Shown in pieces: positions 14,806-31,781 of a stretch of DNA of 64,000 bases. The notes beneath the pieces are model-generated. The model was not told where the DNA came from and searched no databases. It saw nothing but the letters and a program-made list of their open reading frames with translations. Positions within the stretch are counted from its first letter, which is position 1; each line of letters begins with the position of its first letter. The stretch comes from Escherichia coli. Lineage in GTDB: Bacteria; Pseudomonadota; Gammaproteobacteria; Enterobacterales; Enterobacteriaceae. The stretch lies in the NCBI RefSeq assembly GCF_044324785.1, contig NZ_CP172127.1. The stretch is one strand, 5' to 3'. The position numbers were made by a program, and so were the translations under genes.

Positions 14806-14952
14806 TTATCTCTGATCGTTGATGGCGCAATTTCTGCGCCATCGCAAAAAAATCCTCCGTGATGCTCGTCACAAATTTTGCCCTCCCGATGTTGTGCTAT
14901 GCTTTTTATCAGCGACTAACCCGCTAATGCAAAACAGATAAGTGAGGAAACA

Positions 14953-27419: not shown

Positions 27420-27735
27420 TTTTATCGACGATGAGAACAACGTGCCCGGTGATACACCTTCAAAATTAAGCGTAGATGGCAAATGGAAAACTTGCCTACA
27501 CGGCTTTCTTAATTTCAATGGCATATCAACAACTCATCCATAAATTTTGCATAATTAATGTAAAGACCAGGGTCGCCAGTAACGCTAAATTCATTTGGCT
27601 GTAAGCGCGATGTCATCCGCGTCAGGAAAATTAAACAGTTACTTTAAAAAATGAAAACGTAAAAAGGTTGGGTTTCGATGTATTGACGGGTAAACTTTGT
27701 CGCCCGCTAAACATTTGTTTAAGGAATGATTAATT

Positions 27736-28482
27736 GTGACCAAACTCAAACTTCTGGCACTTGGAGTGCTTATCGCAACGTCTGCAGGCGTAGCGCACGC
27801 TGAAGGTAAATTTTCCCTGGGCGCAGGCGTAGGTGTCGTTGAACACCCATATAAAGATTACGATACCGATGTTTACCCAGTACCGGTAATCAACTATGAA
27901 GGCGATAACTTCTGGTTCCGTGGCTTAGGTGGTGGTTACTACCTGTGGAATGACGCAACGGACAAACTTTCAATTACCGCTTATTGGTCGCCGCTTTACT
28001 TCAAAGCGAAAGACAGTGGCGATCACCAAATGCGTCACCTGGATGACCGTAAGAGCACCATGATGGCTGGTCTGTCTTATGCTCACTTTACCCAGTACGG
28101 TTACCTGCGTACCACCCTGGCTGGCGATACCCTGGATAACAGCAACGGCATCGTCTGGGATATGGCCTGGTTGTATCGTTACACCAACGGTGGCCTGACC
28201 GTGACTCCGGGTATTGGTGTGCAGTGGAACAGCGAAAACCAGAACGAATACTATTATGGCGTATCGCGCAAAGAGTCTGCTCGCAGCGGTCTGCGTGGCT
28301 ATAACCCGAACGACAGCTGGAGCCCTTACCTGGAGCTGAGCGCCAGCTACAACTTCCTCGGCGACTGGAGTGTTTACGGTACCGCGCGCTACACCCGTCT
28401 GTCTGATGAAGTTACTGACAGCCCAATGGTGGATAAATCCTGGACTGGCCTGATTTCTACCGGGATCACCTACAAATTCTGA
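27736..28482 (+). CDS. mipA: MltA-interacting outer-membrane protein MipA
   Basis: 248 aa; GTG start; cleavable signal peptide ...AGVAHA, beta-strand-rich, C-terminal F. Confidence 0.85.
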   Translation: MTKLKLLALGVLIATSAGVAHAEGKFSLGAGVGVVEHPYKDYDTDVYPVPVINYEGDNFWFRGLGGGYYLWNDATDKLSITAYWSPLYFKAKDSGDHQMRHLDDRKSTMMAGLSYAHFTQYGYLRTTLAGDTLDNSNGIVWDMAWLYRYTNGGLTVTPGIGVQWNSENQNEYYYGVSRKESARSGLRGYNPNDSWSPYLELSASYNFLGDWSVYGTARYTRLSDEVTDSPMVDKSWTGLISTGITYKF

Positions 28483-30444: not shown

Positions 30445-31452
<1,008 letters not shown>

Positions 31453-31647
31453 CTATTTGTTAGTGAATAAAAGGTTGCCTGTAAAATTACAAAAACCTTA
31501 CGCAGCGTCAAGCGGAATCGTGTCAATCATTGCGACAAATCAATCCTGTGCCTAAGCATTACGCGACTGACTCGCCTCACTCTTCCTTTGGGCTTGAGAC
31601 CACATGGGGTCGGCGTCCCGAATTTTAAAGGGCAATTACGATAAAAA

Positions 31648-31663
31648 TGTGATTTTCATCACG
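31648..31663. promoter_or_regulatory. CRP-like binding site in the gapA-msrB divergent region
   Basis: TGTGATTTTCATCACG matches TGTGA-N6-TCACA at 9 of 10 half-site positions. Confidence 0.5.
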
Positions 31664-31781
31664 ATTTAGGTGCAGCCATTTCGTCGAGATCAAGTTTAGG
31701 ACAAATTTTTGCCAGTTGGTGTTAATGTTTTGTTAGAATCAGTCGCGTAATGTGAGCACGATTAAAGTGAGATGTGAGCAA

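Follow-up and report, generated by a model that had tools for sequence, protein, structure and literature searches.

At the class II promoters galP1, melR and mglB, a CRP dimer is centred at -41.5, where it covers a poor -35 element that is paired with a good -10 hexamer; a poor -35 overlapped by the activator's own site is the usual class II anatomy. According to RegulonDB, mglBAC, galETKM, glpTQ and ykgR also carry a CRP site at -41.5. In some divergent spacers, one such site faces two promoters. The glpTQ and glpABC operons share a single CRP site, at -41.5 and -90.5, and RegulonDB documents both directions; malI/malXY is another divergent spacer in which a CRP site that lies at -41.5 of one operon falls near -90 of the other.

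The closest described system is the gapA regulatory region itself. Shimada et al. 2011 (PMC3105977) reprint, in their Table S4, a RegulonDB entry that lists a CRP site for gapA as an activator at -41.5, with the sequence gctgcacctaAATCGTGATGAAAATCACATTTttatcgtaat. The same study reports a cAMP-CRP SELEX-chip peak labelled 'msrB< >gapA', with CGTGATGAAAATCACA, at 1.86058 Mb, and its SELEX-clone table contains one clone from the msrB/gapA spacer (Tables S2 and S3); altogether, its genomic SELEX recovered 92 known CRP targets, gapA included. PhyloScan 2007 (PMC1794230) placed gapA/yeaA in the top 20 of its cross-species CRP predictions. In Kim 2018 and McCloskey 2018, CRP activates gapA while Cra represses it and dominates; on acetate, gapA falls despite active CRP, with Cra the dominant regulator (Kim 2018).

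Four gapA promoters are given in Table 1 of Olvera et al. 2009 (PMC2759082), located from the ATG at -36 (P1), -153 (P2), -174 (P3) and -245 (P4). The entry for gapAP3, at -174, names the regulator 'Crp' and has the sequence TCACATTTTTATCGTAATTGCCCTTTAAAATTCGGGGCG. When glucose-grown cells were analysed by 5' RACE, P1 transcripts were the only ones found and P3 was undetected (Olvera 2009). That P3 is Crp-regulated and P1 is not is taken at second hand from Olvera 2009, where Charpentier and Branlant 1994 are cited for it.

Here, we analyse the gapA-msrB spacer within a 64-kb stretch of Escherichia coli DNA (the window, which denotes that whole stretch). Its CRP site is the same object as the RegulonDB/EcoCyc site for gapA (P3, -41.5, activator), with the same sequence, spacer and position. 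P3 shares with galP1, melR and mglB the -41.5 centre, the poor and overlapped -35 and the good -10. P3 differs from them in being a minor member of an array of four promoters, with a very strong, CRP-independent P1 downstream of it; Cra has also been shown to override CRP. To what is already catalogued we add a phylogenetic footprint across 78 Enterobacteriaceae species and the exact position of the site with respect to each of the spacer's five transcription starts.

Materials and methods

Start sites were placed in the window by the 3' ends of published promoter sequences. CRP matches were scored with a symmetric weight matrix trained on the RegulonDB sites for CRP that Shimada et al. 2011 (PMC3105977) give in Table S4, with the gapA site excluded. 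A scan for MsrB, with one genome per species, returned 80 Enterobacteriaceae loci. The gapA and msrB genes were divergent neighbours in 77 of the 80, with spacers between 334 and 352 bp; these 77 spacers and the window's own form the alignment used throughout (n = 78, more than 20 genera).

Results

The divergent spacer extends over positions 31441-31781 of the window, 341 bp between the gapA ATG (31440, minus strand) and the msrB ATG (31782, plus strand), and both gene names agree with the MG1655 annotation. Inside it lies the site:

31648..31663, no strand: 16-bp core, with half-sites TGTGA (31648-31652) and TCACG (31659-31663) and a 6-bp spacer between them
31645..31666, no strand: full 22-bp cAMP-CRP binding site AAATGTGATTTTCATCACGATT, centre 31655.5

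The 16-mer TGTGATTTTCATCACG at window positions 31648-31663 matches 9 of the 10 defined positions of the core TGTGA-N6-TCACA, with exactly 6 bp separating the half-sites. An earlier note on this DNA had reported a strong CRP-like site with this score at this place, and we confirm both its sequence and its coordinates. The note's distances of about 210 bp upstream of gapA and about 120 bp upstream of msrB are also borne out, as the near edge of the site is 208 bp from the gapA start and the opposite edge is 119 bp from the msrB start. The 22-bp CRP consensus is AAATGTGATCTAGATCACATTT, with which the 22-mer agrees at 17 of 22 positions.

The gapA site in RegulonDB, including AATCGTGATGAAAATCACATTT, is identical to the window sequence when read as its reverse complement, and the SELEX-chip hit of Shimada 2011 has this sequence too. 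While the site is unchanged, the window strain departs from MG1655 nearby, by three SNPs in the spacer (31616, 31706 and 31745), none of which is in or adjoins the palindrome. In MG1655 coordinates, the core corresponds to 1,862,548-1,862,563 and the P3 start to 1,862,597. Strain N3 has a 100% identical spacer. The spacer occurs in 5425 of 5426 complete E. coli genomes, and 5286 of those 5425 carry an identical 60-mer spanning the site.

We then compared the match with chance expectation. With up to one mismatch, the core pattern occurs three times in the 64-kb window, where 1.96 occurrences are expected, and at least three occurrences were found in 29 of 100 shuffles of the window. The core match by itself is not beyond chance. 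On the CRP matrix, the gapA-msrB site is the top-scoring 16-mer among 63,985 window positions (14.1 bits), and between 89 and 91% of the training RegulonDB sites score below it with the leave-out matrix. A shuffled window yields on average 0.09 (matrix from the SELEX-confirmed subset) to 0.35 (broader set) equal or better matrix matches, and 9-29% of shuffled windows contain an equally good match. Judged from the letters of the window, the site is a good candidate, though not a decisive one.

Conservation is what lifts the site far above chance. Across the alignment (n = 78), its half-sites are near-invariant as (T/C)GTGA ... TCAC(A/G), with a mean column entropy of 0.22 bit, while the 6 bp between them are near random at 1.62 bit and the whole spacer region averages 0.53 bit. 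At least 8 of the 10 core positions are retained in 78 of 78 species, and all 10 (a perfect TGTGA/TCACA) in 43; Escherichia and most Citrobacter have TCACG as the second half-site. The A/T bases that flank the core within the 22-bp site are conserved too. In all 78 species, the orthologous 16-mer is the best CRP-matrix match of its own spacer. The distance from the CRP centre to the near-invariant TTTAAAG (31625-31631) is also the same in every species, with no indel between. As read from this alignment, kept half-sites, a free spacer between them and fixed phasing are together what a site bound by a dimeric protein should show.

These data bear on two readings in which no protein binds. In favour of a palindrome that arose by chance and has no regulatory role, the core pattern shows no excess in the window (three occurrences, 1.96 expected), and equal matrix scores turn up in 9-29% of shuffled windows. 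Such a palindrome would not be expected to keep its half-sites in every one of 78 species, drawn from more than 20 genera, when the bases between them are randomised, nor to be the best match of the spacer every time; together with the SELEX-chip binding and the RegulonDB entry, this leaves a chance origin very hard to credit. The inverted repeat could instead work as RNA, folding into a hairpin within the leader made from gapA P4 (about +22 to +39): P4 starts upstream of it at 31685, and a 5-bp stem capped by a GAAA loop is possible on the minus-strand RNA. The predicted fold is weak (-5.8 kcal/mol, z = -1.8, with 11 of 200 shuffles as good) and has no Rfam match. Across the 78 species, the stem is kept at the level of its sequence, and compensatory changes are absent. 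Just one pair varies, that of positions 1 and 16; on the minus-strand RNA of P4 its bases are non-complementary in 16 of 78 (TG, AA), and CA yields a U-G wobble; positions 6 and 11 are frequently unpaired. We consider the hairpin reading extremely improbable.

The site is a genuine cAMP-CRP binding site, for which the published binding experiment is the genomic SELEX of the spacer. The earlier note's reading of a CRP site is supported, as RegulonDB and the SELEX-chip peak both document a cAMP-CRP target. The site is also already known, being on record as the place from which CRP activates the minor gapA promoter P3. CRP-S (Sxy-dependent) sites have TGCGA/TCGCA cores; these are absent here, and a CRP-S site was rejected. 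An FNR site was rejected as well: the half-sites are TGTGA and not TTGAT, and the FNR peak of Myers 2013 maps to about 31518, 137 bp off.

To relate the site to transcription, we located each gapA start site and the promoter elements near the palindrome:

31476, minus strand: gapA P1 start (major), at -36 of the ATG, with A 31476 as the last base of the published sequence; CRP centre at -179.5
31593, minus strand: gapA P2 start (sigma-32 type), -153 from the ATG; CRP centre at -62.5
31614, minus strand: gapA P3 start (minor), 174 nt upstream of the ATG; CRP centre at -41.5, a class II position
31685, minus strand: gapA P4 start, -245 from the ATG, with its -10 TAAACT at 31698..31693; the CRP site is downstream of this start, centred at about +30.5
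31627..31622, minus strand: P3 -10 hexamer TAAAAT, occupying -13..-8 of the P3 start
31645..31650, minus strand: P3 -35 position, ACATTT, agreeing with TTGACA at about 1-2 of 6 positions when a 17-bp spacer is assumed; under the CRP site

The P3 start follows from the published distance (31440 + 174 = 31614), which is also where the published P3 sequence stops, and the site's centre at 31655.5 therefore lies at -41.5 of P3, as in RegulonDB. The earlier note had proposed that the site could serve gapA. This part of its claim stands through P3; the distance to the ATG that it gave is not the one that counts, and P1 is reported not to be Crp-regulated.

P2 and P3 are closely interleaved. The P2 elements, CTTTAAA-N14-CCCCATGT (31630..31602, minus strand), form a near-consensus sigma-32 promoter, and both of them, ACATGGGG included, are conserved across the family in the 78-species alignment. 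The -35-like CTTTAAA of P2 (31630..31624) overlaps the P3 -10, so that two sigma factors use the same bases. Because TTTAAAG is also part of this P2 element, its fixed spacing from the CRP centre cannot single out P3 from P2. One of the three SNPs, at 31616, falls at -2 of the P3 start and within the P2 spacer, and the base found in the window is almost absent in the 77 other species. Further upstream, the P4 -10 is covered by a conserved block at 31691-31706 (n = 78).

On these grounds, the site is very probably what the catalogue says it is, a cAMP-CRP site that acts as a class II activator of the minor promoter P3. For the contact mechanism at P3, we infer the following from the geometry. 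A CRP dimer at 31645-31666, centred 41.5 bp upstream of the P3 start at 31614 on the minus strand, would overlap and replace the weak -35, so that RNA polymerase would use the good -10, TAAAAT. CRP would directly touch the alpha subunits of the polymerase, as in class II activation. When cAMP is high, a CRP-dependent transcript with a 174-nt leader would be added to the far stronger, CRP-independent output of P1.

The main effect of CRP may instead fall on P2, as class I-type activation, or on P4, as a roadblock. The -62.5 centre at P2 adjoins the canonical class I position of -61.5, and the site is downstream of the P4 start, at +30.5. The literature that we found assigns Crp control to P3 only and documents no CRP effect on gapA P2, and CRP is not known to act at a sigma-32 promoter of gapA. 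We regard this reading as improbable, and P3 remains the preferred target.

The fifth start site of the spacer belongs to msrB, on the other strand:

31747, plus strand: msrB start, giving a 35-nt 5' UTR; CRP centre at -91.5
31731..31739, plus strand: msrB extended -10, TGtTAGAAT, at -16..-8 of the msrB start and conserved in 77 of 78 species

A 35-nt msrB 5' UTR was reported in Bos 2013, and the residues named there (G6 U7 G8, C11 and G32 C33 A34) fit the window only if +1 is 31747. Between the CRP centre and the extended -10, 73 of 78 species have 75 bp, and another 4 have 76 bp. Class I sites share one helical face, with centres near -61.5, -72, -82.5 or -93; work by Gaston and by Ushida and Aiba in 1990 reportedly gives the last of these as -92.5/-93.

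With these positions, the same CRP dimer could mainly or additionally be a class I activator of msrB that recruits the alpha C-terminal domain, which would make the site a bidirectional element. The centre at -91.5 is near the class I position, and the 75-bp spacing is fixed in most species, with -92.5 in the four that have 76 bp, though the intervening sequence varies. As the oppositely transcribed neighbour of gapA, msrB is among the predicted CRP targets of Shimada 2011 (PMC3105977). Several observations point the other way. A centre at -91.5 is 1-1.5 bp off the optimal class I position and so slightly off the best helical face, and the extended -10 of msrB is good enough that an activator may not be needed. 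The gapA P4 elements in the intervening DNA, together with a general scarcity of indels in spacers of 334-352 bp, could account for the constant spacing. In the literature, we found no experiment that shows CRP dependence of msrB. Activation of msrB, for which the earlier note also allowed, is a prediction that the geometry permits, but we hold it to be rather unlikely.

The msrB side of the spacer has two further features. One is the SNP at 31745, which falls at position -2 of msrB. The other is the 16-mer TGTGAGCACGATTAAA (31751-31766), which resembles a CRP site less closely (9.7 bits); it covers positions +5 to +20 of the mRNA and shares bases with RyhB pairing site I. This 16-mer is poorly conserved across the 78 species, and we therefore treat it as probably a chance match and not as a second CRP site.

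Discussion

The identification of this site has little discovery value, as it has long been in RegulonDB, was recovered by SELEX and has entered published models of the central carbon metabolic network. In physiological terms the site probably counts for little, because glucose-grown cells show only P1 transcripts and Cra overrides CRP on acetate.

What the comparison brings in is msrB, which lies at a conserved, class I-compatible distance from the site and would extend the CRP regulon only modestly. A single dimer might combine class II action at gapA P3 with class I action at msrB (-91.5), and might also influence P2 (-62.5). We hold this combined arrangement to be rather unlikely. It would have almost the same geometry as glpTQ/glpABC (-41.5/-90.5, against -41.5/-91.5 here); for glp, however, both directions are documented, whereas the msrB direction is a prediction. 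If it is true, methionine-sulfoxide repair would be tied to carbon status across the Enterobacteriaceae.

Several observations concern the surroundings of the site. In the 78 species from more than 20 genera, the segment of about 100 bp that precedes the gapA ATG (31441-31541) hardly varies, and it is far more conserved than the remainder of the spacer. It contains the P1 leader, the extended -10, a T-tract spacer, the -35 and about 30 bp beyond. Kim 2018 places a Cra site downstream of the upstream gapA promoters, and this segment probably includes it, with GGAATCGTGTCA as a predicted, Cra-like sequence. Myers 2013 reports an FNR ChIP-seq peak at K-12 U00096.2 position 1,860,717; the study attributes the peak to msrB, classed as 'directly activated', and the peak region holds no start site. 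By coordinate mapping, its position near 31518 falls in the invariant block upstream of P1, near TTGCGacaaATCAA (31530-31543).

The 1307-bp contig CALMKU010000237.1, filed under 'uncultured Tolumonas sp.', has an Escherichia-type spacer and an msrB 100% identical to that of E. coli; the metagenome-assembled genome to which it is assigned is probably contaminated with E. coli DNA, or the contig was mis-binned.

Elsewhere in the window, two other near-consensus CRP cores, TGTGACCAAACTCAAA (27735-27750) and CGTGATGCTCGTCACA (14858-14873), hold matrix ranks 2 and 3. The SELEX-chip table of Shimada 2011 (PMC3105977) lists both, as mipA< >yeaGH and yeaQ< <yoaG. With ranks 1-3 all in that table, the window's three best CRP-like sequences are therefore published cAMP-CRP binders.
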